This document shows positions 1-50,777 of a stretch of 64,000 bases of DNA, piece after piece. Where the stretch lies: assembly GCA_964035575.1 (NCBI GenBank), contig OZ037833.1, positions 1,488,001 to 1,552,000 on the forward strand. The letters are read 5' to 3'. How positions within the stretch are numbered: position 1 is the stretch's first letter; each line of letters opens with the position of its first letter. A program made the translations under genes and the position numbers. A model generated the notes under the pieces. That model worked only from the letters and a program-made list of their open reading frames with translations. It had not been told where the DNA came from and made no database searches. This stretch comes from Rhynchopus sp. YZ270_cl-10 (taxonomy: Eukaryota).

Positions 1-51
1 ATCCCTCGAAATAAAACCCTTTCTGAGATCCCAATAAGTGGGAATATTCAA

Positions 52-123
52 GCGGTTATGGTTTAGTGGTTAGAACACCCGTTTGTGGCACGGGAGACCC
101 GAGTTCAATTCTCGGTAACCGCT
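52..123 (+). tRNA. tRNA-His(GTG)
   Basis: Cloverleaf: acceptor GCGGTTA/TAACCGC, anticodon arm CCCGT-TTGTGGC-ACGGG, T-loop TTCAATT, followed by a T-run. Discriminator is T and the genomic -1 base is A. Confidence 0.95.
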
Positions 124-211
124 TTTTTAGCTGTACAATCAACCGTCTAAATTTTTTTTCAACTCCAAAAATATGCAGGCCACATAAAAAATACTATTGC
201 CTAAAGACATG

Positions 212-283
212 GACCGTGTGGCTCAATGGAAGAGCGCCTGACCACGGATCAGGCGGTTGCAGGTTCGAGTCCTGCCACGGTTG
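212..283 (+). tRNA. tRNA-Arg(ACG), C33 variant
   Basis: Acceptor GACCGTG/CACGGTT; anticodon arm CCTGA-CCACGGA-TCAGG; T-loop TTCGAGT; downstream T-run. Confidence 0.93.
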
Positions 284-372
284 CTTCTTTTTTTAGGCAA
301 TTTGAAGAATTTGAAATTATTTTCATTTTGAAATCGCCCCTCACAAAGAAAACACTTTGCATGAAAGTAACA

Positions 373-444
373 GCACTTATGGTATAACGGTTAGTATTCT
401 CGCCTTCCAAGCGAGCGGCCCGGGTTCGACTCCCGGTAAGTGCA
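373..444 (+). tRNA. tRNA-Gly(TCC)
   Basis: Acceptor GCACTTA/TAAGTGC; anticodon arm CTCGC-CTTCCAA-GCGAG; T-loop TTCGACT. Confidence 0.95.
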
Positions 445-732
445 GTTCTTTTTTTAAAGGGGGAAGCAAAATTTTCATGTTCAGAAAATTTTTTCTGAAA
501 TGTCAGCTTTTCAAAGAATTTCCAGTTTTCAAGTTTTTCCTTCAAAAATTTTTCAAGGTTCTTATGGGTGGGTTGACTACCAAAAAATCCAAAATCCCGG
601 GGTGACCCCTTCCCACTGGACCCAATGTTTTTATCTGTTGTGACTGTAACTTGTCACTGTAATTCATTTGACACCAACCTCTCACTTTTTTGTGTTTTCA
701 AAAAAGTTCAAAAAAACAATGTTCAAAAAGTT

Positions 733-805
733 AACCCCGTGCGGGACTCGAACCCGCAACCTTTGGATTCGAAGTCCAACGCGCTATCCATTGCGCCAAC
801 GGGGC
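733..805 (-). tRNA. tRNA-Arg(TCG)
   Basis: Reverse complement: acceptor GCCCCGT/ACGGGGT; anticodon arm TTGGA-CTTCGAA-TCCAA; T-loop TTCGAGT. Confidence 0.95.
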
Positions 806-920
806 CTGATTTGATTTTCATCAGAAAAGAAACGAAACAATGAGTGGGAGCCCTGTACAAAAAAGAATTCCCCGGCCGGGAATTGAACCCGGGTCTTCCG
901 CGTGACAGGCGGAAATACTG

Positions 921-3252
921 GGCCATCCTCCAGTACAGGCCCGCAAAATTTGGCACAGAATGGGCCCAAAAAAACCAGCACAGAATGGAAACGAAAAACC
1001 AGCACAGAATGGAATAGTCGGAGCCTTATAGCCGTGTTCCATTCTGTGCTGGCTTTTCGTTTCCATTCTGTGCTGGTTTTTCAGAAAATTTTTGATTTCC
1101 ATTCTGTACTGGCTTTTCGTTTCCATTCTGTGCTGGCATTTTGACTGAGAAAATGATCCGAAATTCAATACCCGGGTCAGGAGTTTTTTTTCCTCTCCTA
1201 ACAAATCCTTAAGGAAAAGTGAATTATGGATTGCTCAGGATTCCGCAGCCATTCCATTCTGTGCTGGTGTTTCAAAAAAGTACACTTTTTCGTTACGAAC
1301 CAAAAAGTGCACTTTTCTGAAACACCAGCACAGAATGGAATAGCTGGGGAATCCTTAGCAATCCATAATTCACTCTTCCCCTAACAAATCCTTAAGGAAA
1401 AGTGAATTATGGATCACTCAGGATTTCCCAGCCATTCCATTCTGTGCTGGTGTTTCAGAAAAGTGCACTTTTTCGTTACGAACCAAAAAAGTGCACTTTT
1501 CTGAAACACCAGCACAGAATGGAATGGCTGGGAAATCCTGAGTGATCCATAATTCACTTTTCCTTAAGGATTTGCTAAGGGAAACAAAAACTGCTGGTTC
1601 TGGGGTTGGAACCTCCGACCACCAATTTCATACAGTGCACGGAACCTGTGTAGTACTCACTTGGATACTTTGTCTTGCATAAGGATTTTCACCAAGGCGG
1701 ACTAAGTGTCCCAGTGTGTAGCACAGGTTTCATACATAAGAGTTTCTTCGGTGTCGTAGGTTCAAACCCCAGAACCAGCAGTTTTTGTTTCCCCTAACAA
1801 ATCCTTAGGGAAAAGTGAATTATGGATTGCTAAGGATTTCCCAGCCATTCCATTCTGTGCTGGTGATTCAGAAAAGTGCACTTTTTTGGTTCGTAACGAA
1901 AAAGTGCACTTTTCTGAAACACCAGCACAGAATGGAATGGCTGGGAAATCCTGAGTGATCCATAATTCACTTTTCCTTAAGGATTTGCTAAGGGAAACAA
2001 AAACTGCTGGTTCTGGGGTTGGAACCTCCGACCACCAATTTCATACAGTGCACGGAACCTGTGTAGTACTCACTTGGATACTTTGTCTTGCATAAGGATT
2101 TTCACTAAGGCGGACTAAGTGTCCCAGTGTGTAGCACACAGGTTTCATACATAAGAGTTTCTTCGCCGGCGGAGGTTCAAACCCCAGAAGCAGCAGCTTT
2201 TGTTTCCCCTAGCAAATCCTTAGGGAAAAGTGAATTATGGATTGCTAAGGATTTCCCAGCCATTCCATTCTGTGCTGGTGTTTCAGAAAAGTACACTTTT
2301 TCGTTACGAACCTAAAAAGTGCACTTTTCTGAATCACCAGCACAGAAGCCATTCCATTCTGTGCTGGTGATTCAGAAAAGTGCACTTTTTTGGTTCGTAA
2401 CGAAAAAGTGCACTTTTCTGAAACACCAGCACAGAATGGAATGGCTGGGAAATCCTTAGCAATCCATAATTCACTTTTCCTTAAGGATTTGTTAGGGGAA
2501 ACAAAAACTGCTGCTTCTGGGGTTTGAACCTCCGACCACTGGGAAAATAGAATGTGAACAACCCTTGTGGTGCCCACTTGGATGCTTCGTCAGCAATAAG
2601 GATTTCCATTAAAGTAGAGATAGTGTCCTAGTGGTTACCACACAGGTTCCGCACACTACATATTACTACTGGTCGGAGGTTCAAACCCCAGAGGGTGCAG
2701 TTTTTGTTGTTCGTGTGGTTAATAAGCTGGCTGGTGGGTGCGGGTGCACGGGACCCTGCTGGTTCTAGGTTGCGTTATCTGGCTGGTGGTTGTGCGGGTT
2801 TGCGGGTTGACGGGTGCGCGGGTTTGCGGTCCCTAGCTGGTTCGTGTGGTCGATAAGCTGGCTCTTGGGTGCGGGTGTGCGGGAACCTACTGGTTCTAGG
2901 TTGCGTTATCTGGCTGGTGGTTGTGCGGGTTTGCGGGTTGACGGGTGCGCGGGTTTGCGGTCACTAGCTGGTTCGTGTGGTTGTGCGGGTGCGCGGGGTT
3001 CGGGCAGCGTTATCTGGTTCTAGGTTGTGTTAACTGGCTGGTGTAGGTGAAACTTTTTGTCATTTTCAGGTGAGACAAAGTTTTGGCCTGAAAAATTTTC
3101 TCAAAAATCTTGCTCTGTGAAAAAAAAAATTTTTTGTGTAGAAAAATTTTTTTTGGCCTGTAAGTGGGTCAAGTCTGAGTCCGTCCATTCTGTGCTGGTT
3201 TTTGGGTCACCATTCTGTGCTGGATTCCGCCATTCTGTACTGGTGAGTCGCC
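921..3252. mobile_element. Non-autonomous TIR DNA transposon (MITE/foldback-like) with 8-bp TSD AAATACTG
   Basis: TSD at 913-920 and 3253-3260. Imperfect TIRs GGCCATCCTCCAGTACAG / GGCGACTCACCAGTACAG. Many CCAGCACAGAATGG sub-repeats in both orientations, an internal ~420-bp tandem duplication, and no transposase ORF. Confidence 0.88.
2708..3045. repeat. GC-rich TGCGGGTT / CTGGCTGGTG modular repeat, same family as 20890-21700
   Basis: Repeated ggttctaggttgcgttatctggctggtggttgtgcgggtttgcggg modules nested inside the tRNA-Asp insertion. Confidence 0.8.
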
Positions 3253-3378
3253 AAATACTGACCTCTATACTACCGAGGATACAATCTTCACTCTGATTTA
3301 TTTTCGCGGATTAAAATGGTCTAAAATGAGCACAGAAATGACGAAAATGCATGAAAATTTGTGAACAAAAAAATGAAT

Positions 3379-3460
3379 CGCAGTCGGCAGGACTTGAACC
3401 TGCGCGGGCAGAGCCCAATGGATTTCTAGTCCACCTCCGTAACCACTTGGATACGACTGC
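3379..3460 (-). tRNA. tRNA-Ser(AGA)
   Basis: Acceptor GCAGTCG/CGACTGC; anticodon arm GTGGA-CTAGAAA-TCCAT; long variable arm GGGC-TCT-GCCC; G73. Confidence 0.95.
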
Positions 3461-3538
3461 TGTAATTCTCACCGTTCTTTGTTTTTAGGCAGTCATCTGT
3501 TTGCAGAAAATAATCTGGAACACGAAAACGAAAAAAAA

Positions 3539-3622
3539 TCCTCTCGGCCGGAATCGAACCAGCGACCGCTCGATAACCGAGTATTCTACAGTCGAGCGCT
3601 CTACCAATTGAGCTACGAGAGG
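3539..3622 (-). tRNA. tRNA-Tyr(GTA) with 11-nt intron (3575-3585)
   Basis: C1-G72 acceptor CCTCTCG/CGAGAGG; anticodon arm CTCGA-CTGTAG[AATACTCGGTT]A-TCGAG with the intron at canonical position 37/38. Confidence 0.95.
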
Positions 3623-3746
3623 TTCTACAACTGTCATTGTTTTCACAGAAGCCCATAAAATTTTTTGGCTCAAAAAAATTTTTTTGCCACACAAACCTGT
3701 AGAAATTTGCACCCCATGTATTTCTTAATGATACGATAATATCAAG

Positions 3747-3819
3747 GCGAGGTTGGCGCAGTCGGGAGCGCGTAGGTCCCATAATCCTAAGGTCGTCAGT
3801 TCGATCCTGGCACCTCGCA
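3747..3819 (+). tRNA. tRNA-Met(CAT), elongator type, C33 variant
   Basis: Acceptor GCGAGGT/ACCTCGC; anticodon arm TAGGT-CCCATAA-TCCTA with T31:T39; elongator T-loop TTCGATC. Confidence 0.92.
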
Positions 3820-3904
3820 CTTTTTTGTGTGTCTTTTTCCTTTGTGTGGGATTTTCAGCAAAATTTCCACCTTCATGCTAAACGCATTGAAGCCCTAAAT
3901 CATG

Positions 3905-3975
3905 GGCCCTATGGTGTAGCGGTAGCACTATGGATTCCAAATCCATCAACGGCGGTTCGATTCCGTCTAGGGTCA
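3905..3975 (+). tRNA. tRNA-Trp(CCA)
   Basis: Acceptor GGCCCTA/TAGGGTC; anticodon arm ATGGA-TTCCAAA-TCCAT; T-loop TTCGATT. Confidence 0.92.
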
Positions 3976-4057
3976 TTTCTTTTTTTACACACTTTCCTTT
4001 CTGTGTTGTCTTGAAAAACTTCTTCGCAGGAGAAACAGCAAAAGCATCTTAATCAGC

Positions 4058-4129
4058 GGCGATTTAGCTCAGTGGCAGAGCATTGGTCTTGTAAACCAAG
4101 GGTCGGGGGTTCGATCCCCCCAGTTGCCT
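4058..4129 (+). tRNA. tRNA-Thr(TGT)
   Basis: Acceptor GGCGATT/AGTTGCC; anticodon arm TTGGT-CTTGTAA-ACCAA; T-loop TTCGATC. Confidence 0.95.
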
Positions 4130-4226
4130 TTCTATTTTTTGGTGATGTGATGTGATGTGGTTGTGCTGAAGAAGCAGCAACTGAGCACTGGATGTGACAG
4201 GCAGGAACGCAGAAGGGAGATGGCCT

Positions 4227-4634
4227 GGCCGTACTCCAGTACAGGCCCGAGCGAGTGCTCACAGAATGGGCTCCAAAAACCAGCACAGAATGGAATGGCT
4301 GGAGACTTATAGGCTTACTGTAAGGATTTGTTAGGAGTGGAAAAAAAAACTCCTGACCCGGGTATTGAATTTTCAGATCATTTTCTCAGTCACAATGCAA
4401 GCACAGAATGGAAACGAAAAACCAGCACAGAATGGAATGGCTGGAGTCTTATAGCCGTGTTCCATTCTGTGCTTGGTTTTGGTTTCCATTCTGTGCTTGC
4501 ATTGTGACTGAGAAAATGATCCGAAAATTCAATAGCCAGGTCAGGAGTTTTTCCATCTGAATTATGGATTGCTAAGGATTTCCCAGCCATTCCATTCTGT
4601 GCTGGATTCCACCATTCTGTACTGGTGAGTCGCC
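4227..4634. mobile_element. Short (~410 bp) relative of the element inserted in tRNA-Asp
   Basis: Same termini (GGCCGTACTCCAGTACAGGCCCG ... CATTCTGTACTGGTGAGTCGCC) and the same CACAGAATGG sub-repeats. No clean TSD. Confidence 0.8.
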
Positions 4635-4944
4635 AAGAAGCGGCAGCTGAGCACACTGGACATGCCCAGAAAGGAGATAAGTTGTGGGGCTGAAACGTGC
4701 TATCCCCAGCAAAAGGGTCTGGCACTTTTCGCGAGTGGAAGCAGTTCACACCTGGTTGAACGCAAAACCTACACCGGTCGGTGGGAGTCCTGTGTTGGTT
4801 CGGAAAACACATATTTTCACCCAAATTCCACTCTCAACTTGCCAACGAAACAGAACTGAGATCAAGTGGAGGAAATATTTTTTGGTTTTCATTTGCCTCA
4901 AAATCTCAGAAACCTGCAAAATCGTAAACATTCAAAAAGAAAAG

Positions 4945-5017
4945 CACCTCCCGCGGGGCTCGAACCCGCGACCACAAGGTTAAGGGCCTTGCGCTCTACC
5001 GACTGAGCTAGGGAGGC
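4945..5017 (-). tRNA. tRNA-Lys(CTT), C33 variant
   Basis: Acceptor GCCTCCC/GGGAGGT; anticodon arm CAAGG-CCCTTAA-CCTTG; T-loop TTCGAGC. Confidence 0.93.
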
Positions 5018-5125
5018 TCACATTCATTTAAACCAAAGAATCATTGTGGGGGGTGGTCATGCAGAAAAGTCTCTTGTCCTAAATTTGACCACCCCAGAGA
5101 AAAGGAAAGAAGGTAAAACTATTAG

Positions 5126-5198
5126 GCCCGTGTAGCCCAATGGATAAGGCGTTCGCTTCCTAAGCGAAAGATTGTGGGTTCGATCCCCACCATGGGTA
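5126..5198 (+). tRNA. tRNA-Arg(CCT)
   Basis: Acceptor GCCCGTG/CATGGGT; anticodon arm TTCGC-TTCCTAA-GCGAA; T-loop TTCGATC. Confidence 0.95.
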
Positions 5199-5412
5199 TT
5201 CTCTTTTTCACTGGGAAGTGAAAATATGGAAAATGATTTTTCAAGATTCTCTCACCATCTTGGGATTTTGGTGACAACAAAGATATGGCAAAATACTTTC
5301 ACAAAAATGCACTTTTCCAAACTTCCTCATCTTGGGATTTTGGTGGTCGAAAAGATGTGGAAATAATTTTTCTAAACAATTCCCAAGCAAGAAACTACCT
5401 AAATAAAAAGAG

Positions 5413-5450
5413 GGGCTCAGCAGGGAATCGAACCCTGGACCTCTCGCACC
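5413..5450 (-). pseudogene. 3' half of a tRNA-Pro gene, 10 nt from the retrotransposon poly(A)
   Basis: Reverse complement GGTGCGAGAGGTCCAGGGTTCGATTCCCTGCTGAGCCC is the Pro-type anticodon 3' strand, T-arm and acceptor. The 5' half was not found in the window. Confidence 0.85.
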
Positions 5451-5456
5451 GGTATG

Positions 5457-5460
<4 letters not shown>

Positions 5461-5505
<45 letters not shown>

Positions 5506-8500
5506 CAACTTAGCCCTAGGCTCGCTTTTTTTAATCTACATCCAGTGACAGAGGGGGTACTTACTAGTCAAGCGAGTATGTAAACAGCTAGATGTCCAGA
5601 CAAGGGCACTTTACTATTGTACTGGCAAGACAGTGCCTGAAAACACAGTTAGTGGCACTAAAATAGAAAGCATGTGGGACAACTACAACCAACACTTCCC
5701 TGCAAATAAGCAAAAGGGTCGTATGTGAGTGCAATTTTTCCCAAAAGGAAAAGGGGAGGGGATGGGACGGGAGGGTTGCTCTGTCTACCGGTGTAGTTTT
5801 ATTTTGCTTTGTCTTGGGGAGGGGAGGGGAGGAGAAGGAGGGGATTGAGTGAGCCGTTTCCTCTGTAACACACAAACAAATAAAAAGGAAGTTCCATAAT
5901 CTTTTTAGTAGTTTTCTTTTTGGTGAAAATTTTTGAGAACTTCAGTAAGTGTGACCTGACCCGACTGACTGACACCCAAAGGGGAAAACAACAATAACGC
6001 ACAACAAAATCAACAACAACAATGGTGGGTCTCGTGCTTACCTGTGGTGGTTTTGAAAAATGAAAAATTGAAATTGACCTTCACAAGGTAAAAATGAAAA
6101 ACTAAAGGAGTGAAAAAAGGAACTCAAAGGACAAGAGTTCTGTACAAACTCTACTCTACTGCACAATCTATAAAAGTGGCCCAATGGCTCCTGATGCCAC
6201 TGGCCTGGCTCTTAGACAGGTCTTACTCCGAGACTGCCCTCTACCCTCAGAGCCTCGTCCAAGGGGTACGGGCCGTCGCTGGGGTAGACCCGTCCTAGCC
6301 AGCAGCCAACCAAAAATATTAACAAATAGGAAGGGGGGCGGAAAGGGGGGAAAGGGGGGGCAAACCCCAAAGGATGAAAAGAACAAAAAACACAAAATAA
6401 AAAGGGTTAAAAATAAACATGGGGCAAACTGTCATTCTCTACACGCTTCTACACACACACTCTCACCCTCTAACTCTCTAGCTCTCTAATTCTTTTTATT
6501 CCCCTTTTTCCCCTTCCTTCCTCCGCTCTGTCTCCCCTTCTGTCCACCACCGCGACCATTGCGCCCTCTCTGCACCTCCTGGGGCGAGAGCACATGCTGC
6601 GTCGCTTGTGCCACTGCGTCGGTGAACACGTTCGACGTGTTGGACCTACCCTGAGCTGCATGGCGCTGGGGTCCTTTGGGAGCTGGGGAAGGAGCAGGTT
6701 GGGCGGAGGAGGTTGCATTGCCACGGCCTGCCGATGAGGAGGAGGAAGAAGTGGAGACTGCAGGTTGGGCGATGGAGGTTGTAGTGCCACGGCCTGCAGA
6801 GGTGGAGGAAGAAGAAGAAGAAGAGGAGGCTTGAGGTTGTCGGCCTATTCCCTCTCGAGCCGCTCGTGCCTCATTCTCCCTCCTTGTACTCTCCGCTGCA
6901 AAGGCCTGCCCCCTACTGCTCCGGTTGTCCGTCAGGGCATGCAACGTCGACTTTGCCTTGCACTTTTCCTGAACCGACCACTCATGCAAACCCACCACCT
7001 TCATCACCTCATACCACTGAGTGAAAGTAGCGGTAGAGAGGGGGAGTGACAACAAGGGTCTGCCATCCTGTTTCTCTCCCTGACGGTAGTGGAACAGGGA
7101 GATCCACTTCGTCACAGAAGAAGGCACCGGCGACCCCATGGTGAGGCACGGGAAAAGACCCCCCCTCTCCGTCCGCTCCTCCTCCGTCCACATCCAAGCC
7201 TCGCTCTGCGCCCTCAGCAATTCCCTCACCCTCGCTTGCTTCTTCTGGTCAGGGATGCCTTCCACTGACAGAGAATGCGAGCGATCCGCCCCCTCCATCG
7301 CGGTGTCGAGGTCCTCCTCCTGCTCCTGCTCATCATCATCCATCTCCTCCACCTTCACACGCACCTCGGTGTCTGCCGCCTCGGCCTGTCGCCCCACCTC
7401 CTCCTCCAGCTGATCCCGAGAAGGGGTTCCCCAGCTGACCCTGCCTTCCCGAACGACGATGACCGCGCTGGTCTTGCCCCAGGTGTCGCAGTATCCGGCC
7501 TCCCCTGCTATCTTCCTAACCGCCTGACGGGCGACCACCGACTCCGGGCAATCACCGTCCCCCTCCCCGTTCCCACTCCACGGCTGCTGTGTCGCCCAGC
7601 AGTACAGGAACTCGCCCGGGCACGGAGAAGCACCTTGAGGACCAAAGAGAGCCATCCAGTCGCCGACACAGTCAGGTTCGAGTCCTTCAGGGTCGTCGCC
7701 CACCGCTCTCCGCACCGCATGGCAGGGGAGGAATAGCCGCCCTTCGCACACCACCCCAAAGCACCGCCCGTATGCCACCATGCGTTCCGCCTCCAGCTGT
7801 CGGGAGAGGTTCACCGCCGTCAACAACAGAGTGGTCGCCTTCTGCTCCGACTCATGCTTAGCTGCGATGGCGTAATGCCTCTCGCAGCGTTGCCTGTCAT
7901 ACTCCGCCCGGAGCGACTCTCCTGCTTCGGGGTGCCGATCGCAGTCTTCCAAGTACTGCGCATGCATCCTCTTCGCGTCCTCTGCGAGTTCCCGCTTGTG
8001 CCTGGCGGTCAGCTCCTCCACACGATGCCTGTCCGCCGCCTTCGCCTGGTCCAGACGCACATTCTGTTCCTCCAGGAAACGACTCAACTCCTGCTGGCGG
8101 TCGCCAAAAGTGCCCCGAAGCGCGGCCAAATCCGGTCCCCACGACCGACGATGCTCCCGCCGTACCTCCAGGGCTTGCTGCCACGCGTCCGACGCACGCT
8201 GCAACGCTTCCTTCTTATCCTGGTCCGCCTTTTGTTGTTGCTGCTTCTGCTGTTTCCGTTGCTTCTCGTGCTTCTGCTGCTTCTGTTCTGCCTGCTGCCC
8301 CTCTTCGCCCGCCATTGGCGTGTCTACCTCCTCGACGTCCTCGCCCTCGGGAGCTGGCACTGCTGGAGAAGGAGCCCGTTTAGGTGGTGGGTCTCCGCTC
8401 CCCTCCGCAGAGGCAGCCTGAGCCGGAACATTCGAGTGCAAAAAAGACAGGGCACTGAAGTATTCCGCCCTGCCAATTTGCGACAGAGGGCAGTGCTTGG

Positions 8501-11500
8501 ACCCCTGAGCGCAGTGCAGACATGCCAAGCCACCACACGTGTGACAGCAGAAGTGTGCGTCCGACGCATCGAAGAGCTTGCTGCATTGTTCGCACTGCAG
8601 GAAAGTGTTCGACGCCTCCGCCTCCCTCGCTCCCACAAAAGCCATGGGGCGCTCTGACTGGCACTCCCCCTTACCACCTGTGGCCTCAAAAGACAGGATG
8701 TGCTGCTGCAGAGCCGGGTCCATGGTGAGGGGCTCGTAGTGTCCCGGGATACTGCCGGATCCATCTGCCGCATCCTGGTCACCCGAGTGGAGGAGAAGGA
8801 CCACTGCCTTAGGCCGTTTTCTTGGCACCATCAGAGAAGGGCGGGCGAACTCGTTGAGGATGACCACAGATACCTCAAGAGCCTCCCCTGCCCCCGCCAC
8901 TGCAATGGCATCCGCCCACGTTCGCTGGTCTCCTCTGTCCCCACTCGTCATCAGCCGCTGCCAGACCCCAAAATTAGGGACAGCCGCACTCGACAGATCA
9001 GCGCGGCCCTGGACCTTCTTCACTGCCGCCTGGCGCAGACCCTCCACCGACAAATCCGTGCGCCCGGTGGCGAAGAGCAAAGCCTCAAAAGCACAGTCCC
9101 CCGCCACAAACGACCAAGTCACCTTCGAGGCTCCCAGCTTGGCCGCCTGTTCCGTCGCCCGAGGCCTCTGCGCTGCCGGGCACTCACGCAAAAACTCCCA
9201 CTCACGCACCACATCGAGACCCGGCCCTTCCGGAATCACGGTAGCCGAATCAAACCTCCCGGTCCGCTTCCTCGGTGGCTCCACGTGGTCCGGCTTCACG
9301 TCCCTCTTGCGCTTCCCCTGCTGCTCCTCCGACCGGTCTGGAGCAGGACGACTCATATCGTCGTCAGGGTTCGCATCATCACAGAGAGGTTCCACAGCCC
9401 CTGCACTGCGGCGTCCAAACCGGTCCATGTCCTCTGCAGACGGTGCCACATCTACCTCCACACACGGCTCCCGCTTCAGGGTGGCAATCCCTACACACAT
9501 AGCACCCCGCTCCAGAAAGGAAGATGCGACCTTTTTCTGGTACGCCACCGCAATGCTCTCCCGGATGCGCAACTCTGCCGACCCTGTTAGGTGCGACGTC
9601 TGTCCCGTCGTCAGGCCTCCAAGCTGCGCAATCAAGAGGTTCGCCTCGTCGCCTGCACCCCCGAAGGCTTCAAACACAATAGGGGAGAACTTGGTGTTGA
9701 TCTTGTTCAAATCCCGCTCGTGCTTCTCCCGTTTGACCTGGCCCTGGTTCTTCGCCGACCAGCCCACAAACTTCGAGGCCCCTGTTCTGTAGGAAGGCAA
9801 GGTGGGGCACACGTGGGTGATGTCCAAACAACGAGGTCCATTTTCCGCCACTCCTACTGGGAGGTAGACATCGCCTGGCCGCTTCTTAGACTCCAACTCC
9901 ACTCGCACGGTCTCCTCCAAAGCAGGGTCCAAGCCCGCCCCTTGAGCCGCTCTGTACACCGAATCCCGCAAGGCGTTGTGGCGGGCGACGCGGTGTTTGG
10001 AGTAGGGGCAGCCAAAGGTGTGGTCGCCAAAGGAGTCCATGACAACCCTTTTCTGCCCCCCCTGACATGCCGAGCAAGTCGTTCCCTCCGCATGGATGGC
10101 CACCCCTAGTCGGAAACGGGTCACAACCGCAAAATCCGCTGAAGACATCTGGTTCCTTGCTGATGGTGTCGCCGTGAGGTACGTCCCAGAAAGCGGCAGG
10201 AGAAGGGACTTCATCCGTGCTCGGTCTCGCATGCAGAGCTGTTGCATCAACTTGTCTGCCTGGGCGTCAATCACCGCAGATGACAGACTCTGCTGCTCCA
10301 GGATCTTCTTCGGCTGGGCCCTGTCCACGTGAAACGCCACCGGTACCCTGGAGTTGTACTCCTCAGCTGCGCTGTTCCATCTCTCCTCATCCCAGGTGAA
10401 GGCAGGGTCCAAGGCCTGCGACAGTTGCAGGTTCCCTGACTGAGAGGCGAGGGACGCAGCCGTCCGATGGTCCACTGTGCGACGGATACCCAGCCCCCCA
10501 AGCGCCACAGGAAGCGCCGCCTGCGCCCTTGCCAACTCCGGCAGCGCCCCATCCGGGTCATGCAGAAGCGCAGCCAGGCACCTGTCGATCAGGTCGTCAA
10601 AGGCCGTCAGGTACTCCGCGCACTGTGGGATCCCCCGCATGTAGAACACCATGCGGCAGTAGCCTTCGCAGTATCTCAGTACGTAGAAGGCTGCCTGGGA
10701 GTCCCCGAGGTCCACAAGGGCTTCCAGGTTGCGGCGGGAATCGTCCACCTTCCGGGCCATGTACTCCTCGCAGAATGCCGCAGACCCAATGGGGATGCCC
10801 AAGAAATCGAACCCATCCACATCCAACAGCCGGAACCCGCCTTCACCCATGGCGTCCTGTCCACCCTCGGTCAACGTGAACCCCACCGCCTTGAGCTCCT
10901 CCGTGGAGACGCCACCAGTGGAGATGAGCTCACACTTGTTCGCGTTCACCTCCAACCCCAGTTCGGAGCTACGAGTGCGCAGAACCTGGTACGCCTCAAA
11001 AACCGCCTTAGGGGACCCCCGCAGAGAGCCGTCATCGAGGTACCACAAAGTCCCATCCAGGCCTGGGTGCCCCTTCAGCTCTAGCGCCATCTGGTGGATG
11101 GTCAGGGAGAAGAGAAGCGGGCCCAAGGGATCTCCTTGTTGAGCTCCGCGCTGTGACCTTATGGTATCTCCACCATAAAACAGGCTGGAGGGCTCCAGGT
11201 AACACCATCGCACCCATGGGGCCAGCTCGGGGAGGTTCGCGTCGACCGCTCTTAGCATCGACAGGCGGTCTACGCAGTTGAACGCGTTACGGTAGTCAAT
11301 TTTCAAAATGACTTTACCTTTTCCGCGGTTGCGCACGGCGTACTGCGAGATAACATCCGTCGCCACTGCCGCCCCCCTTGCCGTTGCCACCCCCACCTGG
11401 TTCCCTCGAAGAAGAAGCGTCCTAGCAGGCACCCGCACTCGCGCCGACAGAATCTTTCCCACCAGTCTGCGGAGAGTGTCCCCAACCGCAATCGGTCGCA

Positions 11501-13590
11501 CGTCCTCCTCCAGGCCCGGCCCCTTTGCAGGCTTCCGGAGAGCCACCAAGTTAGCGCCGGCGAAGAACTCAGCCACCTCCACTGGAGCATTTCCTCGTGC
11601 CAAAGACGTCAACACTGCGGCCAGCGCTGCCAAAGTGCCCTTAGCCCGCCTCTGTAGGCAAAGTGTACGAAGGTGCGCGCCCGTCACGTTCGAGGGACCC
11701 GCCGCCGATGACTTCGGCATGCTCCGCAGGGCCTTCATCACCTCCACCACTGTCACCGGTGGGACCTCCTGAGGCTGGGGCCAATCCGCCTGCTCCAGGG
11801 CCTTGGAGTCGGCAGCGGCTGGGTGCTTCGTCTGAAGCTTTTCCAGCGTCGCCGGTGTCTGTGGGGCGAGGCCGTCGCTGGTAGCGCAAGACATGGCCTG
11901 GCTCGGGAGTCCTGCTCTCGCTTTGGCGATGGTGCGCTTCCGTCTCCCTTCGTCAGTGTCTTCATCCGACCACCCAGAGGGCCTTGGCTTCCGCTCCTCT
12001 ACCGTTTGCTCCCACAGGGCGACATACTGGCCAGCCTTCCAAGCCTCCAAGTCCTTCCCCCAGGTGCTCGTCAAACGTCGCTCCTGGTCCTTGCCCCCTC
12101 GTTCTGTCCGTGTCCGGTGCAACACTGTGAAGAACAGTGCAAGGCGCTTCCAGGCCACCTCGTCCTGGTACTCCAGGATGTCCATGAGGACCCTCAGGAA
12201 GAGCTCGCTGTACAGCTGTAGGTGTTTGTCTGGGCACCCGCCCTTCAGCTGGATCCTGGTGGTCCCCATGACTTCAAAGGAGGGGAGGTCATCCTGATCT
12301 GTCAGCATTCCTCGACTGGAGGGAGACGGAGCGGTGAAGCCTTCTTCGCCAAAGTGCACCGTACAGGTGTTGCAGACCTCCTTGCTCTGCGGCAATAGCA
12401 TGTCGCACTGATCGTTCGCACAGCGCGACATGCCCAAGTGGCCCAACAGCTCGTCGGGGATGTACGCTCCATCGGCCTGGTGGCGACGCATGTGCTGCAG
12501 CAAGCCCTTACGAGACAGGCCCCCGACCGCATCACTCGAAGACAAAATTCCCGCTCTGCATCCATCAAAGGGGCAGAACACCCGATCCGCATTGATGTGT
12601 CCCAGCTTGGTAGCCAGGGGGGCGGTGGTGGTGGTGTTGGTGGGGATGATGCCATCCAAATGCGCTGTGTCCAGCACTGCCTGCCGAGCCTCCTTCCTCA
12701 TCTTCTCTGCCATCCCCTCCTTGGTCTTCCCCACCTCCGGGACAAGCTCCACTGCCTCAAAGTGAGAGTCACAGAGAGCGATGACGACCGTGGGAAGTTT
12801 CGCTTGGAAGCTCTCCGCGTACGACTTGGCGACTCTTTTGCTACCAGGGGTGATGCGCACGAGGGGGTTCTCTTCCGATGCCTGCACCACCACGATGTTG
12901 ATGCGGGATGCTGTCGCGGTGAGCTGAAGCCCCAAGTGGTTGAGGTGGGCCTCGCCGGTCACACCATTGGCAAACTCCGTCATGGCCTCCTGCGACCCCA
13001 GCACCTGCACCAGGCGGTTCGACACCTCCACTGCTGTGTCATACAGCTGCTTGCGCATTGCCCTCACGTCCGGCTGCGTGTCGTGGTCCCAGAGGTGTAG
13101 TGCCACATAACCACAATCATTAGTAGACACGTTGGGGATGCGTTTAGCTCCAAACTTCGCCAGAGTCGCGTCCACAGACACCGCCTGCTCAGTATACGCA
13201 GGAGCGTTCACGTTTGCGCACCCACCGGTCAACGCAAACGGGGACAAGCTTACCGGGTGCTCCGGATCAGCAGGGGCAGGGCGCAGGTCCCAGGGCGTCA
13301 CCGCTCGCCACAACAACGACAGCAAGACCAGTAGGGACACCGCCAGCATGCCAAATGCCATCCCGATCCTACGAGTCCACCTGCGTGCTGCCACACGGCG
13401 CACCTCCAAGAGAAGAACCCAGCCAAGTGGGCGCGCGACGCCGACCAGTGCCACAAAACCCGCCAAACAACCACCTGCGGACCATGCAACCCACACCCAC
13501 TCGGCTGCACGCACCGACAACTGACCCACCCCCATCACACTGGCTCTCACCAAGCTGGCAGCCACTCGGATCCCTCCGGTCCATCGGTGC
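5461..13590 (-). mobile_element. Non-LTR retrotransposon, CRE clade (RT plus restriction-like endonuclease), poly(A)-tailed
   Basis: Poly(T) on the + strand at 5461-5506, ~1-kb 3' UTR, and a single long ORF with CRE-type RT and RLE motifs. The 5' boundary is approximate and must lie below the U4 promoter at 13592. No TSD found. Confidence 0.9.
6486..13535 (-). CDS. Retrotransposon polyprotein: hydrophobic N-terminus, OTU-like protease 1, Zn fingers, RT, Zn knuckle, RLE, OTU-like protease 2, Cys-rich Zn finger, coiled coil, basic tail
   Basis: RT: RPIAVGDTLRRLVGK, KIDYRNAFN, QRGAQQGDPLGPLLF, WYLDDG. CCHC: CSAC..DHTFGC. RLE: RHNALRD..KRPGD..LDITHV..KREKH. OTU-like: NDCGYVAL..HFEAV and GDCAFEAL..WAD..GHYEPL. 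Start placed at the first ATG outside the U4 gene and its promoter. Confidence 0.88.
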   Translation of the reverse strand: MGVGQLSVRAAEWVWVAWSAGGCLAGFVALVGVARPLGWVLLLEVRRVAARRWTRRIGMAFGMLAVSLLVLLSLLWRAVTPWDLRPAPADPEHPVSLSPFALTGGCANVNAPAYTEQAVSVDATLAKFGAKRIPNVSTNDCGYVALHLWDHDTQPDVRAMRKQLYDTAVEVSNRLVQVLGSQEAMTEFANGVTGEAHLNHLGLQLTATASRINIVVVQASEENPLVRITPGSKRVAKSYAESFQAKLPTVVIALCDSHFEAVELVPEVGKTKEGMAEKMRKEARQAVLDTAHLDGIIPTNTTTTAPLATKLGHINADRVFCPFDGCRAGILSSSDAVGGLSRKGLLQHMRRHQADGAYIPDELLGHLGMSRCANDQCDMLLPQSKEVCNTCTVHFGEEGFTAPSPSSRGMLTDQDDLPSFEVMGTTRIQLKGGCPDKHLQLYSELFLRVLMDILEYQDEVAWKRLALFFTVLHRTRTERGGKDQERRLTSTWGKDLEAWKAGQYVALWEQTVEERKPRPSGWSDEDTDEGRRKRTIAKARAGLPSQAMSCATSDGLAPQTPATLEKLQTKHPAAADSKALEQADWPQPQEVPPVTVVEVMKALRSMPKSSAAGPSNVTGAHLRTLCLQRRAKGTLAALAAVLTSLARGNAPVEVAEFFAGANLVALRKPAKGPGLEEDVRPIAVGDTLRRLVGKILSARVRVPARTLLLRGNQVGVATARGAAVATDVISQYAVRNRGKGKVILKIDYRNAFNCVDRLSMLRAVDANLPELAPWVRWCYLEPSSLFYGGDTIRSQRGAQQGDPLGPLLFSLTIHQMALELKGHPGLDGTLWYLDDGSLRGSPKAVFEAYQVLRTRSSELGLEVNANKCELISTGGVSTEELKAVGFTLTEGGQDAMGEGGFRLLDVDGFDFLGIPIGSAAFCEEYMARKVDDSRRNLEALVDLGDSQAAFYVLRYCEGYCRMVFYMRGIPQCAEYLTAFDDLIDRCLAALLHDPDGALPELARAQAALPVALGGLGIRRTVDHRTAASLASQSGNLQLSQALDPAFTWDEERWNSAAEEYNSRVPVAFHVDRAQPKKILEQQSLSSAVIDAQADKLMQQLCMRDRARMKSLLLPLSGTYLTATPSARNQMSSADFAVVTRFRLGVAIHAEGTTCSACQGGQKRVVMDSFGDHTFGCPYSKHRVARHNALRDSVYRAAQGAGLDPALEETVRVELESKKRPGDVYLPVGVAENGPRCLDITHVCPTLPSYRTGASKFVGWSAKNQGQVKREKHERDLNKINTKFSPIVFEAFGGAGDEANLLIAQLGGLTTGQTSHLTGSAELRIRESIAVAYQKKVASSFLERGAMCVGIATLKREPCVEVDVAPSAEDMDRFGRRSAGAVEPLCDDANPDDDMSRPAPDRSEEQQGKRKRDVKPDHVEPPRKRTGRFDSATVIPEGPGLDVVREWEFLRECPAAQRPRATEQAAKLGASKVTWSFVAGDCAFEALLFATGRTDLSVEGLRQAAVKKVQGRADLSSAAVPNFGVWQRLMTSGDRGDQRTWADAIAVAGAGEALEVSVVILNEFARPSLMVPRKRPKAVVLLLHSGDQDAADGSGSIPGHYEPLTMDPALQQHILSFEATGGKGECQSERPMAFVGAREAEASNTFLQCEQCSKLFDASDAHFCCHTCGGLACLHCAQGSKHCPLSQIGRAEYFSALSFLHSNVPAQAASAEGSGDPPPKRAPSPAVPAPEGEDVEEVDTPMAGEEGQQAEQKQQKHEKQRKQQKQQQQKADQDKKEALQRASDAWQQALEVRREHRRSWGPDLAALRGTFGDRQQELSRFLEEQNVRLDQAKAADRHRVEELTARHKRELAEDAKRMHAQYLEDCDRHPEAGESLRAEYDRQRCERHYAIAAKHESEQKATTLLLTAVNLSRQLEAERMVAYGRCFGVVCEGRLFLPCHAVRRAVGDDPEGLEPDCVGDWMALFGPQGASPCPGEFLYCWATQQPWSGNGEGDGDCPESVVARQAVRKIAGEAGYCDTWGKTSAVIVVREGRVSWGTPSRDQLEEEVGRQAEAADTEVRVKVEEMDDDEQEQEEDLDTAMEGADRSHSLSVEGIPDQKKQARVRELLRAQSEAWMWTEEERTERGGLFPCLTMGSPVPSSVTKWISLFHYRQGEKQDGRPLLSLPLSTATFTQWYEVMKVVGLHEWSVQEKCKAKSTLHALTDNRSSRGQAFAAESTRRENEARAAREGIGRQPQASSSSSSSSTSAGRGTTTSIAQPAVSTSSSSSSAGRGNATSSAQPAPSPAPKGPQRHAAQGRSNTSNVFTDAVAQATQHVLSPQEVQRGRNGRGGGQKGRQSGGRKGKKGNKKN

Positions 13591-13591
13591 A

Positions 13592-13606
13592 CTTCCCTGT
13601 GGACAT
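13592..13606 (+). promoter_or_regulatory. PSE-like element of U4 (CTTCCCTGTGGACAT, -47)
   Basis: Same motif and offset as upstream of U2 (13887) and the SL RNA genes (-46). Confidence 0.7.
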
Positions 13607-13638
13607 AGCTTTGTGACACGACTGGGAGAAAAGGAGGT

Positions 13639-13780
13639 ATTCTTGCGCTCGGGATAATTCCATAAGCAATGACCAAATAGGGACGCTGTGGAGAGATTGC
13701 TGGTTGAAAACTACCCAATTCCCGCCATGGGCCGCTTCGGCGTTGCCACATTGGCAATTTGTGTAGCTGCTTCGGCGGCC
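13639..13780 (+). ncRNA. U4: U4 snRNA
   Basis: 5' ATTCTTGCGC pairs with U6 GCGCAAGGAT (stem II). Kink-turn-like GCAATGACC-AAATA-GGGACGC; TGCTGGTTGAAAACT (stem I, conserved U4 motif); CCCGCCATG...CATTGGC; Sm site AATTTGTG; terminal cUUCGg hairpin. Confidence 0.92.
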
Positions 13781-13886
13781 TTGTTTTTACTAATAAGATT
13801 GATCATCACCTTCACTTACTTCCCTGTGACATGGGTGTGTAATCTGCTTGCCTTGTTGTTTCCTAGTAATATTGATCATAATCATG

Positions 13887-13900
13887 CTTCCCTGTACATG
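13887..13900 (+). promoter_or_regulatory. PSE-like element of U2 (CTTCCCTGTACATG, -47); second copy near 13819
   Basis: Motif and spacing shared with U4 and the SL genes. Confidence 0.72.
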
Positions 13901-13933
13901 GGTGTCGAATTCGGTATGGACTAAAAAGAAGTC

Positions 13934-14120
13934 ATACCTTCTCGGCCTTTTGGCTAAGATCAAGTGTATTATCTGTTCTTATCAGCTTAATATCTGATAC
14001 AGTGCCTTGTGCACTGATGATATTAACGCAATTTCTCATTGGGGTGACGGGTCGCCAGGGCAACCTGGTCCGTTCACACATGTTGCCCTGGAGCTGCACA
14101 ACATCCAGGAGTGGCATACC
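13934..14120 (+). ncRNA. U2: U2 snRNA
   Basis: ATACCTTCTCGGCCTTTTGGCTAAGATCAAGTGTATTATCTGTTCTTATCAGCTTAATATCTGATA is the U2 5' domain. The 3' stem-loop IV has a TGCAC loop and is followed by a T-run. Confidence 0.97.
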
Positions 14121-14217
14121 CTCTTTTTTAACAAAACAAAAACAAACATACCATACATACCATACATACACAGTGGTTACCACTGTGATGTGGGTTATTA
14201 AAAACAGAGGTCGGAGC

Positions 14218-14366
14218 GAGCCTCTCAATGTCAGAGGCTTCAAAGCATTTCACGAGAAAACTCGCCCCTGTCCTTCTTCATCACTATCACTTGACCGAAC
14301 ACTCCCTGCAAGGAAGCCTGTAAAAGGCGATGCTTAGGCAACAACACAGACACAGGGGGGGTGCTG
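14218..14366 (-). ncRNA. U5: U5 snRNA-like (divergent or pseudogene)
   Basis: Invariant loop-1 nonamer GCCTTTTAC closed by AAGC/GCTT and CCCTGTG/TGCAGGG stems. Degenerate Sm-like AATGCTTTGA is followed by the hairpin AGCCTCT-GACATTG-AGAGGCT. Ends are approximate. Confidence 0.55.
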
Positions 14367-14385
14367 GGTGGGAAAATATAAAAAA

Positions 14386-14710
14386 GGGTGCTTGCGTTGT
14401 GTGCTGGATCGGGACCACCAGTAAACTGGCAGCCCCACATCCAGTTCTAATATTTGAAGTGTGAAATAGAACGCAGTCAGAATTAGTGTTACACGCTAAT
14501 GTAAGAATAATCATCATGGGTAATATTCTGTACGAACGTACGGGATTTACATCATATGAAAGTAGTTCCGCCTTGGGCCATATCAGGCCCAACAGCAGGA
14601 CCGCATCATAAAAATTGTAAAGAATTTTCTTAAATAGAAAGGTCTTTTCAAGTTTTAGCTGTTGCTGAACGAGTTGTTTGGTTTCGAAGTAGCACACTAA
14701 CTTAGCACCC
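14386..14710 (-). ncRNA. Unidentified ~325-nt structured Pol III-type RNA
   Basis: 5'/3' closing stems GGGTGCT/AGCACCC and GTGTGCT/AGCACAC, an immediate T6 terminator, internal hairpins, and the U6/7SL upstream element at the identical -34 offset. Confidence 0.75.
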
Positions 14711-14734
14711 AAACATAGGGAGAGTATGGGAAAA

Positions 14735-14770
14735 CAAGACAGGGTTGTCTTGTTGGAGGTGGGTCAGGGT
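14735..14770 (-). promoter_or_regulatory. Upstream element shared by the unknown RNA, 7SL (15446-15480) and U6 (16035-16083)
   Basis: caagacaggg...gttggag.tgggtcagg occurs three times. The CCCTGT core starts 34 nt before each inferred 5' G (14710, 15421, 16010). Confidence 0.75.
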
Positions 14771-14831
14771 GACACACACTTTGTACATGCATCATATGTG
14801 TGAATGTTTTTTCTCATGGTGACGTAAAAAA

Positions 14832-14944
14832 GGCCAGTCTCTTTCGAGGCTGGCCATGTTTGACAAAGTTGTGTGAGAAGAATATAATCTTCATGCTTCC
14901 ATACCAATGAAGTACAGAAACTGTAGCTTTAGAAATCGTTGGTT
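14832..14944 (-). ncRNA. SL: Spliced-leader (SL) RNA gene copy 1 (40-nt exon 14905-14944)
   Basis: AACCAACGATTTCTAAAGCTACAGTTTCTGTACTTCATTG/GTATGG: diplonemid-type exon and GT donor, two further hairpins and a T-run. Confidence 0.96.
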
Positions 14945-15104
14945 GCCCTTTTTCTTAACATTGCTCTAAGCACCAACATGTACTGGTAAACATGCCACTT
15001 GTGGTGAATAATGTGGGTAGGAATGGTCTGGGCAACGTGGTGGGGTGTATCAACAACACATGTGTATGGTGATGTGGAAACAATGTTCACATGGAAAAAT
15101 GTAA

Positions 15105-15421
15105 AAAAGAAACGCTTCTCCAGTTCAAGCCATTGAGTTGGAAACACCCTCACTCTGCTCTGTGCTGCGATCCTTGAACTGTCCACTGCAGGAGTTATGA
15201 GCTGCTCTGTGAGACCAGCCTGGCCCGGTTCACCCCATTTCACTCTGATTGTTGCCCTGGTTTACACCAAGGCCGCAAACAGGACAGTAGACTAACACGG
15301 ACAACACATCAACACAGAAGTTGAAGGTGCCTTTGGTCCACCTCAAAGAGTGCCCAGTTCTGGAGAAGCTTGCCCCCCCAGAAGCTAGGGGTTTCAGGAT
15401 GCAGCCAACACATCCCGGCTC
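15105..15421 (-). ncRNA. 7SL: 7SL / SRP RNA
   Basis: Alu 5' GCCGGG...CCTGAAACCCCTAGCTTCTGGGGGGGC; helix 6 with GTAA tetraloop; helix 8 CCAGG..AGCAG SRP54 motif; GCTTCTCCAG/CTGGAGAAGC pairing; T-run. Confidence 0.93.
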
Positions 15422-15574
15422 AATAGATACCATATTGTCGGAATACAAGACAGGGTTGTCTAGTTGGAGGTGGGTCAGGTCAAAAACGTGGTTTTGAAGA
15501 TCCTCACTTCTTGTGTGTGTTTTTTTTTTGCTTTGCACAAAGACACACAAAGACAATCATGCTAACGTAAAAAA

Positions 15575-15686
15575 GGCCAGTCTCTTTCGAAACTAGCCAT
15601 GTTTTGACAAAGTTGTGTGAGAAGAGTAATCTTCATGCTTCCATACCAATGAAGTACAGAAACTGTAGCTTTAGAAATCGTTGGTT
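15575..15686 (-). ncRNA. SL: SL RNA gene copy 2
   Basis: Identical 40-nt exon and GT donor; small intron-region differences. Confidence 0.96.
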
Positions 15687-15904
15687 GCTCTTTTTCTCTA
15701 CACAGCTTTCGACATGTATATGCTCAGGGAAGCATGCCAGTAGCATAAACCATATGGTCGTTTTTTGAAACCAATATTTCAATGGGTTACTGCAGCCTGC
15801 CACTTGCCACCTGTGGGTGATGGGTATGTCTGCACATATGTGTTGGTCTGGGAAGCATGAAGAAGACACCAGTGTAAAAAATACGTGTGATCCGGGGGAC
15901 AAAA

Positions 15905-16010
15905 AAAAAGTTGATACTTTCTCGATTAATGCGTGTCATCCTTGCGCAGGGACCATGCTAATCTTCTCTGTATCGATCCAATTTTAACGGATGTCCCATT
16001 TCTGGGGTCC
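15905..16010 (-). ncRNA. U6: U6 snRNA
   Basis: ACAGAGA box, AAGATTAGCATGGTCCCTGCGCAAGGATGACACGCA, and a T9 end. Confidence 0.98.
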
Positions 16011-16166
16011 AGTATATATGCACAAGGTGGTTGACAAGACAGGGGCCCCTTGTTGGAGTTGGGTGTTGGAGTTGGGTCAGGGTCTGAATGTGGTTCTAAA
16101 CTTCTGCTGTTGTTGTGTGGGTTTTTTTGCTTCTTGTGCACAAGACGATCGTGTTAACGTAAAAAA

Positions 16167-16278
16167 GGCCAGTCTCTTTCGAAACTGGCCATGTTTTGAC
16201 AAAGTTGTGTGAAGAATATAATCTTCATGCTTCCATACCAATGAAGTACAGAAACTGTAGCTTTAGAAATCGTTGGTT
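16167..16278 (-). ncRNA. SL: SL RNA gene copy 3
   Basis: Identical exon and donor. Confidence 0.96.
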
Positions 16279-16525
16279 GCCTTTTTTCTCTACAATGTTC
16301 TAAGCTCCTACGTGTGCTGGGAAGCCATCTTTCAGTGTCCTAAATATGGTCGCTCTCATAAGAGTCAACAGTGGTTTCTGAAGGGGCATATGTGGTACCA
16401 GTGCCACAAATGGTTGCCCACATGGTTTTGCAGGCGATATACAAATGGGTTTCAGCAAGCACTTGTGTGTGATGGGAATCATGTGTGTTTTTTGGGTTTG
16501 CACAAGGTGATGTTAACGTAAAAAA

Positions 16526-16639
16526 GGCCAGTCTCTTTCGAGGCTGGCCATGTTTTGACAAAGTTGTGTGAGAAGAATATAATCTTCATGCTTCCATACC
16601 AATGAAGTACAGAAACTGTAGCTTTAGAAATCGTTGGTT
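16526..16639 (-). ncRNA. SL: SL RNA gene copy 4
   Basis: Identical exon and donor; upstream CATGCTTCCCAGTACATG with CTTCCC at -46. Confidence 0.96.
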
Positions 16640-19770: not shown

Positions 19771-19808
<38 letters not shown>

Positions 19809-19856
19809 TGTTGTTCAACTTAGCCCTAGGCTCGCTTTTTTTATCTACATCCAGTG
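19771..19856 (-). mobile_element. Severely 5'-truncated copy of the CRE retrotransposon 3' end
   Basis: Poly(T) followed by ttcaacttagccctaggctcgcttttttt.atctacatccagtg, which matches about 5505-5546. Confidence 0.85.
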
Positions 19857-19859
19857 CAG

Positions 19860-49040: not shown

Positions 49041-49236
49041 CGTGTGCCGCTTTCCAAATGCGAGAAAAAATGTGTTGGATCTGTGATGTAAAGGTGTGTG
49101 TGTGGTGAAATATGTGGGTTACAGGACAGGGGAAACGGACGGACTTCTCGTGTACGTTATTATGGTTTACGTTGTAGACAAAATAATTTTATGAAAAGGA
49201 GAAAGGAAAGAGAGAAGGGCAAACGGCAAAGGTGTA

Positions 49237-50613: not shown

Positions 50614-50777
50614 TTTTTTTCAAATTTTATGAATTACCTGTCTCATGTTGGTTCGCAGACTCGTGATAAGAAAAAACAGGGGGAGGGGAACGCTATGTTA
50701 GTTTGTATCCATGAGCTATCAGTGTCGGTGGTGGTTATCACAGTTGACAGAAGTCAACGTGACACAAAATGTACAGT

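Follow-up and report, generated by a model that had tools for sequence, protein, structure and literature searches.

A CRE-like retrotransposon of Rhynchopus with two predicted OTU proteases and a candidate LxGG cleavage site

We examined a 64,000-nucleotide stretch of the genome of Rhynchopus sp. YZ270_cl-10 (GenBank assembly GCA_964035575.1, contig OZ037833.1, positions 1,488,001 to 1,552,000), referred to below as the window. Its reverse strand carries a copy of a multicopy, poly(A)-tailed, CRE-like retrotransposon without long terminal repeats (non-LTR), which encodes a reverse transcriptase (RT) and a restriction-like endonuclease (RLE). Two predicted OTU-fold cysteine proteases, here termed N-OTU and C-OTU, bracket this core. 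A conserved LxGG motif, similar to the C-terminus of ubiquitin, stands directly before the N-OTU. We put at about one half the probability that the protein is a virus-style polyprotein, in which the N-OTU would cut at the LxGG motif and free the RT protein, and the C-OTU would remove host ubiquitin. The features of the element are listed below from the 5′ to the 3′ end of its reverse strand (−), with protein positions in amino acids (aa).

5461..13593 (−): whole element copy, 5′-truncated (contig of run X4, loose ends at 13593, poly(A))
13590..13593 (−): 5′ junction, short overlap with the sequence upstream of the U4 small nuclear RNA (snRNA) gene (loose ends)
13233..13593 (−): in-frame leader remnant with hydrophobic segments, aa 113–131 and 146–164 (hydropathy)
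13221..13232 (−): L-T-G-G, putative cleavage site similar to the ubiquitin C-terminus, aa 191–194 (alignment)
12744..13199 (−): predicted N-terminal OTU-fold cysteine protease; Cys230, His347, Phe348 (model and profiles)
12360..12575 (−): N-terminal zinc fingers, C2H2-like and C4-like, aa 410–481 (sequence; kept in relatives)
10473..11735 (−): reverse transcriptase and thumb (Pfam RVT_1 core 10872–11510)
9495..10220 (−): CCHC finger and restriction-like endonuclease (motifs; kept in relatives)
8685..9158 (−): predicted C-terminal OTU-fold cysteine protease; Cys1570, Trp1629, His1688, Tyr1689 (model and profiles)
8490..8663 (−): eight-Cys finger, aa 1714–1771 (alignment; follows the C-OTU in most relatives)
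7779..8300 (−): Q/E/R/K-rich, coiled-coil-like helical stretch, aa ~1835–2008 (sequence; varies between families)
6915..7181 (−): ~85-aa C-terminal domain, W-x-x-x-F-H/Y...W (alignment and profile search of retrieved proteins)
6486..6845 (−): Ser-rich, basic tail and stop codon (sequence)
5506..6485 (−): 3′ untranslated region (UTR), ~980 nucleotides (nt) (contigs of runs X1 and X4 join the reading frame and UTR unbroken)
5461..5505 (−): poly(A) tail, then a tRNA-like 3′ half (sequence)

Two predicted OTU folds around the RT and endonuclease

A first-pass annotation had placed OTU-like domains on both sides of the RT and RLE and named structure prediction as a check. The AlphaFold models bear out this claim, as they match OTU structures only, with the Cys and His in place. 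The C-OTU was modeled with a mean predicted local distance difference test score (pLDDT) of 80.9 (12 sequences). It superposes on yeast Otu2 with a Z score of 14.6 and a root-mean-square deviation (rmsd) of 3.0 over 136 aligned residues (Foldseek E 7e-6), and its matches comprise Otu2, OTUD3, OTUD1, DUBA, and the nairovirus OTUs. The N-OTU model (mean pLDDT 70.0; 7 sequences) retrieves the same set more weakly. Its best comparison, with OTUD1, gives Z 10.7 and rmsd 5.1 over 133 aligned residues (Foldseek E 2e-4), and every listed match is an OTU-family deubiquitinase (DUB). Both the N-terminal and the C-terminal domain are OTU folds according to these models.

The codon of Cys230 in the N-OTU is at 13115 and that of His347 at 12764. 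These two residues are invariant in 8 of 8 alignment rows and align with the Cys and His of OTUD3; His347 is followed by the aromatic Phe348. In the C-OTU, the Cys1570 codon is at 9095 and the His1688 codon at 8741, and Trp1629 is retained. The aromatic residue after the His sits above the di-glycine in OTU DUBs (PMC5695851; here and below, literature statements refer to the part of each source that was available).

Profile searches with the N-OTU found OTUD3 at E 0.005. The C-OTU profile matches the N-OTU profile with P 92% and E 5.7e-7, and BLAST of one domain against the other gives weak local matches. In the ESM Atlas, PF02338 is assigned to clusters at 0.93 for both domains, the family being present on 19–44% of members. 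A Pfam scan of the whole protein reported RVT_1 only and neither OTU. The N-OTU stays below the gathering score of PF02338 (no match here, 15.9–21.7 bits in relatives vs 23.3), and the C-terminal copy of one relative, P0004, is over the Pfam cut-off at 28.9 bits. Single-sequence searches of the PDB gave no OTU match for either domain.

The conserved LxGG site and the hydrophobic leader

The GG pair directly before the N-OTU is invariant in all seven aligned families and makes up 2 of the 16 invariant columns among 186. The seven families represent about five independent branches, with N-OTUs 28–41% identical to that of the window element. The P4 residue of the site is Leu in four families, Met in one, and the called start residue in two; P0371, a close relative of one of the latter, reads L-R-G-G, the ubiquitin C-terminus itself. 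The site occurs twice in P0003. As in arterivirus-type self-processing, it lies in the same polypeptide as the protease. No hydrophobic-x-GG sequence is present after the RT in the window protein, and the C-OTU is therefore without a GG self-site.

The two leader segments have hydropathy values of 1.88 and 2.49, compared with a maximum of 1.59 elsewhere in the protein, and transmembrane-like segments were found in 8 of 8 leaders tested. The leader is ~323 aa long in full-length copies, and the window copy is short of about 200 of its codons. A stretch of ~70 aa is nearly identical among the leaders of P0002, P0003, and P0004, while their RTs share only ~43% identity; the families may have exchanged their 5′ regions, or the stretch may be under strong constraint. 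The first-pass annotation mentions neither the LxGG site nor the hydrophobic leader, and it is also silent on the 5′ truncation and on the conserved domain near the C-terminus.

Variation of the C-OTU and the sister family in Diplonema papillatum

A C-OTU is present in 13 clusters. At least one copy with both Cys and His is retained in 11 of them (by eye), and dead copies are found in 5. In P0003, P0004, and P0068, a first C-OTU without the Cys/His is followed by an intact duplicate.

The layout is common to several families at 34–44% identity. A sister family is present in Diplonema papillatum, with the gene models P0342, P0338, P0343, P0344, and P0328 (KAJ9439003, KAJ9464156, KAJ9442719, KAJ9464152, and KAJ9446222, respectively). 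It has the N-terminal OTU, with two GG sites upstream of it, and the hydrophobic leader, and in three gene models the leader contains an AlkB-type domain. KAJ9439003 and KAJ9464156 carry a USP domain, above the Pfam cut-off, after the endonuclease, where the second OTU would be. Two unrelated DUB folds, OTU and USP, thus appear from the sequences to occupy the same C-terminal slot. The sister proteins are automatically annotated as 'SLACS 132 kDa protein'; a D. papillatum orthogroup of that name, to which they may belong, holds three Trypanosoma brucei proteins. One model of the family carries the name tRNA methyltransferase.

In a FastTree phylogeny of 149 RTs, all 12 OTU-bearing rows fall inside one clade of 14 (support 0.998), and the other two rows are a fragment and an N-terminal piece of an OTU-bearing family. 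IQ-TREE, run on the 14 lineage rows with 16 chosen outgroup rows and an assumed root, supports the lineage at 99/97; within it, the 12 others group to the exclusion of the D. papillatum family. By these trees, the OTU-bearing elements are one RT clade with a lineage-wide design rather than a one-off. The trees were built without trypanosomatid CRE elements, and CRE membership is a putative assignment from motifs and automatic SLACS-like names.

The architecture had been called unusual, and the counts agree with this. An OTU was found in 6 of 141 endonuclease-bearing, CRE-like rows (from the best 150 of 2213 listed, many of them fragments) and in 3 of 114 new rows of a second set (from 120 of 505 listed). 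This second set covered only proteins of 412–1313 aa, again with many fragments, and has a median tail of 9 aa past the endonuclease (108 rows). P0172 and P0189, other RT–endonuclease proteins, match PDZ weakly in the region before the RT.

Anatomy of the protein and integrity of the copy

The open frame at 6486–13802 (−) is 2438 codons long from stop to stop, but its first ~70 codons lie outside the element, in flank and antisense to the U4 snRNA gene. The RT matches Pfam RVT_1 over aa 765–977 with E 2.9e-16; structure matches to R2 and LINE-1 reach only E ~1e-11. The CCHC finger (Cys1243/1246/His1261/Cys1265) is followed by the endonuclease motif R-P-G-D...D at aa 1274–1327, a region without a Pfam match. 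A single open reading frame (ORF) with RT, CCHC finger, and PD-(D/E)xK endonuclease is typical of RLE-type non-LTR elements, and the poly(A) tail, 5′ truncation, and many copies belonging to that type are all present.

The C-terminal extension of ~1000 aa noted at first pass was recovered, with the endonuclease profile ending at aa 1436 of 2438. So was the Cys-rich finger after the C-OTU, which has eight Cys and a sub-threshold FYVE match in Pfam (E 0.002). Of the coiled coil and basic tail described in the same annotation, the tail is indeed basic, and the putative coiled coil is a Q/E/R-rich helical stretch. The ~85-aa C-terminal domain is kept across the families outside D. papillatum, one of which has two copies. 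Neither this domain nor aa 1991–2134 has a match in Pfam or the PDB.

The stretch was covered with contigs from four runs of four studies. A single contig from run X4 covers 5515–13593 unbroken. At 13593, loose ends in two of the four runs (X1 and X4) lead into a longer N-terminus as in P0002, so the window copy is 5′-truncated. P0002 is 99% identical, 2570 aa long, and belongs to a cluster of 187 members that includes many copies of 2567–2571 aa. Synonymous changes make up 29 of the 38 ORF variants listed (from 40 of 89 variant rows), against an expected 24.5%; the ORF is under purifying selection. Two metagenome scans returned nothing.

Before 13590/13592, loose ends in all four runs lead into other sequence continuing upstream of U4, which is absent from the 64-kb window. 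We found no target-site duplication; as the window is without the U4-upstream sequence of the other runs, a deletion or rearrangement may hide one. A 10-nt motif at the 5′ junction recurs at 5695–5702 and was weighed as a possible target-site duplication. We rejected this reading, because contigs cross the motif up to the poly(A) and the U4-upstream sequence of the other runs differs. Assignment of the poly(A) to a separate element was likewise rejected on contig continuity, with the proviso that collapsed repeat contigs cannot prove each copy. Directly after the poly(A), at ~5410–5460 (−), is a tRNA-like 3′ half; we take it to be similar to tRNA-Pro, and neither ARAGORN nor Rfam called a tRNA there. 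The last ~60 nt of the 3′ UTR recur with poly(A) at 19771–19859, within tandem repeats, as a very short 3′-end copy of the element or of a relative.

Proposed mechanism and alternatives

In the mechanism we propose, the leader would be translated and would then anchor or hold the precursor. The N-OTU would cleave after Gly194, in cis or in trans, and the product would be an OTU–finger–RT–endonuclease protein freed from the hydrophobic leader. The C-OTU and its finger could trim ubiquitin from the element protein, or from host factors present where the element inserts or at the ribosome. Insertion would occur by target-primed reverse transcription, which is established for RLE elements. We divide the roles in this way because the conserved LxGG occurs only before the N-OTU and because a USP fills the C-terminal slot in D. 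papillatum. Self-processing and deubiquitination had been put forward at first pass as alternatives; the sequence comparisons point rather to a split, with processing by the N-OTU and deubiquitination by the C-OTU. More tentatively, a diplonemid non-LTR lineage may have evolved an RNA-virus-style polyprotein, with a membrane-tethering leader (AlkB-bearing in D. papillatum) that would be cut at a ubiquitin-mimicking LxGG by its own OTU, and an exchangeable C-terminal DUB (OTU or USP, with duplications and losses of activity over time) that would counter ubiquitin-based host defence.

Several observations weigh against the self-processing polyprotein. Both OTU activities and the LxGG cleavage are predictions from sequences and models. 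The N-OTU model is the weaker of the two (pLDDT 70, rmsd 5.1), and the usual OTU Trp motif has been lost from the N-OTU in the family of the window element. Hydrophobic-x-GG sequences occur 2–12 times per protein, so that only the fixed position counts as evidence, and the families that share the LxGG are related to each other. In two of the seven, P4 is the start chosen by the gene caller, and there the leader and P4 are only predicted. In D. papillatum, two GG sites are found ~130 aa before the OTU Cys, with a finger between. The dead C-OTU is the only visible copy in P0076 and P0213, so catalysis at the C-terminus is not strictly required. The closest folds here are OTUs of the cellular type, which mostly spare linear peptide bonds. 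The N-terminal OTU of the nairovirus L protein does not process its own protein (PMC3968130), whereas the arterivirus OTU protease, the precedent in favour of the model, both cuts at RLIGG and deubiquitinates (PMC5695851, PMC3968130).

A possible though rather unlikely account is that both OTUs are deubiquitinases only, without self-processing, and that the LxGG is a cleavage site for a host DUB or a pseudo-substrate that occupies the active site of the N-OTU and silences it. It agrees with the cellular nature of the closest folds (OTUD1, OTUD3, and Otu2), with the nairovirus OTU, which is N-terminal and not autoproteolytic (PMC3968130), and with the DUB domains of Ginger and Helitron elements, whose proposed targets are host ubiquitin pathways (PMC2836005). 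However, the LxGG goes with the N-OTU, and the C-OTU lacks such a motif. Host DUBs usually require a ubiquitin-like fold, and Pfam detects none upstream of the LxGG.

The dead copies in 5 of 13 C-OTU clusters, and their standing as sole visible copy in two, would be expected if the C-OTU and finger were mainly a ubiquitin- or protein-binding module with optional catalysis. We judge this improbable, since a Cys and His copy persists in 11 of the 13, three of the dead copies have an intact duplicate beside them, and the sister family has a USP. It is very improbable that both OTUs process the protein of the element or act on another ubiquitin-like modifier, with the C-OTU removing the 1000-aa tail by a cut at a site without GG; the alignment shows no conserved site in the linker, and the C-OTU retains the DUB-typical Trp and the aromatic residue after the His. 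That the OTU-like motifs reflect chance, a decayed fusion, or an assembly artefact is hardly credible. Pfam and single-sequence PDB searches did miss both domains, but the fold matches, the 187-member cluster, the contiguous cover in independent runs, the purifying selection, and the presence in a second species all speak against it.

Genomic surroundings

The element sits in a cluster of small RNA genes with 11 tRNA genes (51–5198), U4, U2, signal recognition particle (SRP) RNA, and U6. At 13639–16621, the U4, U2, SRP, and U6 genes and four spliced-leader-like genes adjoin the tRNA cluster. The four spliced-leader-like cores, at 14910–16621, are 1.3–3 kb from the element and uninterrupted at the core motif. 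The copy is not inserted in a spliced-leader RNA gene; it is flanked by the tRNA-like remnant on one side and by the region upstream of U4 on the other. Targeting of U2, as by Utopia, was considered and rejected, as U2 is whole (model 1–192) and outside the element. A U5-like loop is seen by eye near 14335 (−), where Rfam gives no match.

We take the spliced-leader consensus 'Euglenozoa 14' to be assigned to diplonemids, which fits the sister position of the D. papillatum element in the tree. By eye, the spliced-leader exon of the window closely matches this consensus (PMC3795323). The cluster is arranged unlike the SL-5S-U2 (SL, spliced leader) repeat of D. papillatum (PMC10161547).

An 8-nt motif occurs at 13592–13599, 13819–13826, 13887–13894, and 5695–5702, with nine matches across the window where 2.7 would be expected. 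It lies ~40 nt upstream of both U4 and U2, and also within the 3′ UTR of the element; it is possibly an snRNA promoter element. Dense direct and inverted repeats between the tRNA genes, at 916–2708 and 4260–4605, possibly form a miniature inverted-repeat family. Elsewhere, the window contains an ORF with a hAT transposase dimerisation domain (34569–37115, +), partly duplicated ORFs with EGF repeats and laminin-G domains (38191–42204, 45972–49118, and 28413–30914, −), a SPEF2-like ORF (51046–54528), and a prenylcysteine-lyase-like ORF (49237–50619).

Comparison with known systems

Elements of the CRE clade (SLACS, CZAR, CRE1/2) encode N-terminal zinc fingers, an RT, and a restriction-like endonuclease in one ORF, carry a poly(A) tail, and have a euglenozoan host; the available part of this source describes their anatomy without mention of a protease or OTU (PMC12278014). 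The CRE element of Ectocarpus is, in the portion of its description at hand, without an OTU (PMC12477816). The window element shares the one-ORF anatomy, the poly(A), and the euglenozoan host. It adds two OTUs, the LxGG site, the leader, and the ~1000-aa tail, and in contrast to the trypanosomatid elements it lies outside spliced-leader genes, with no target-site duplication found.

Transposons with a single DUB-type protease, be it Ulp1, Josephin, or OTU, are already known. NeSL/Utopia elements carry a Ulp1 protease (PMC4640811), Dualen a Josephin protease (bioRxiv 2021.04.23.441226), and ORF2p proteins Josephin and, in one case from Symbiodinium, an N-terminal OTU (PMC13405545). Like the window element, NeSL/Utopia, Dualen, and the Symbiodinium ORF2p have a ubiquitin- or SUMO-type Cys protease N-terminal to a non-LTR RT. 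As described in these sources, they have this one protease, whereas the window element has a second past the endonuclease and a conserved GG before the first. The DNA transposons Ginger1 and Helitron also fuse an OTU to transposition machinery, and this OTU is proposed to engage the ubiquitin pathway; they have one domain, and a self-cleavage site is not described in the available part of the source (PMC2836005). A literature search, in which Repbase was not included, found no CRE-like element with OTU domains or with this two-OTU layout. A term search of supplementary files of PMC10161547 linked OTU to no retrotransposon among the matches listed.

An OTU fold within a polymerase-bearing polyprotein is otherwise known from viruses, namely arterivirus PLP2, the nairovirus L-protein OTU, and PRO of turnip yellow mosaic virus, a viral OTU protease and deubiquitinase (PMC3744425). 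PLP2 cuts at a GG site and also acts as a deubiquitinase, whereas for the OTUs of the window element these activities are predicted. The host protein here is that of a retrotransposon, and the closest folds are the cellular OTUD1/3 and Otu2 rather than the viral ones. An AlkB domain and an OTU within a single replicase are reminiscent of plant RNA viruses.

Roles for the earlier ubiquitin- and SUMO-type proteases of transposons are only proposed in the available sources. The present lineage supplies a built-in candidate substrate, the conserved LxGG, together with natural variants in which the OTU is dead, duplicated, or swapped for a USP. The function of such domains is therefore directly testable with two point mutants, and the sister family occurs in D. 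papillatum, a model diplonemid. If the self-processing polyprotein is correct, non-LTR elements would process their own protein as RNA viruses do, and ubiquitin would be a layer of defence against retrotransposons in euglenozoans. Relative to the systems compared above, the conserved LxGG site, the dead and duplicated C-OTUs, the ~85-aa C-terminal domain, and the OTU–AlkB–USP family of D. papillatum are new.

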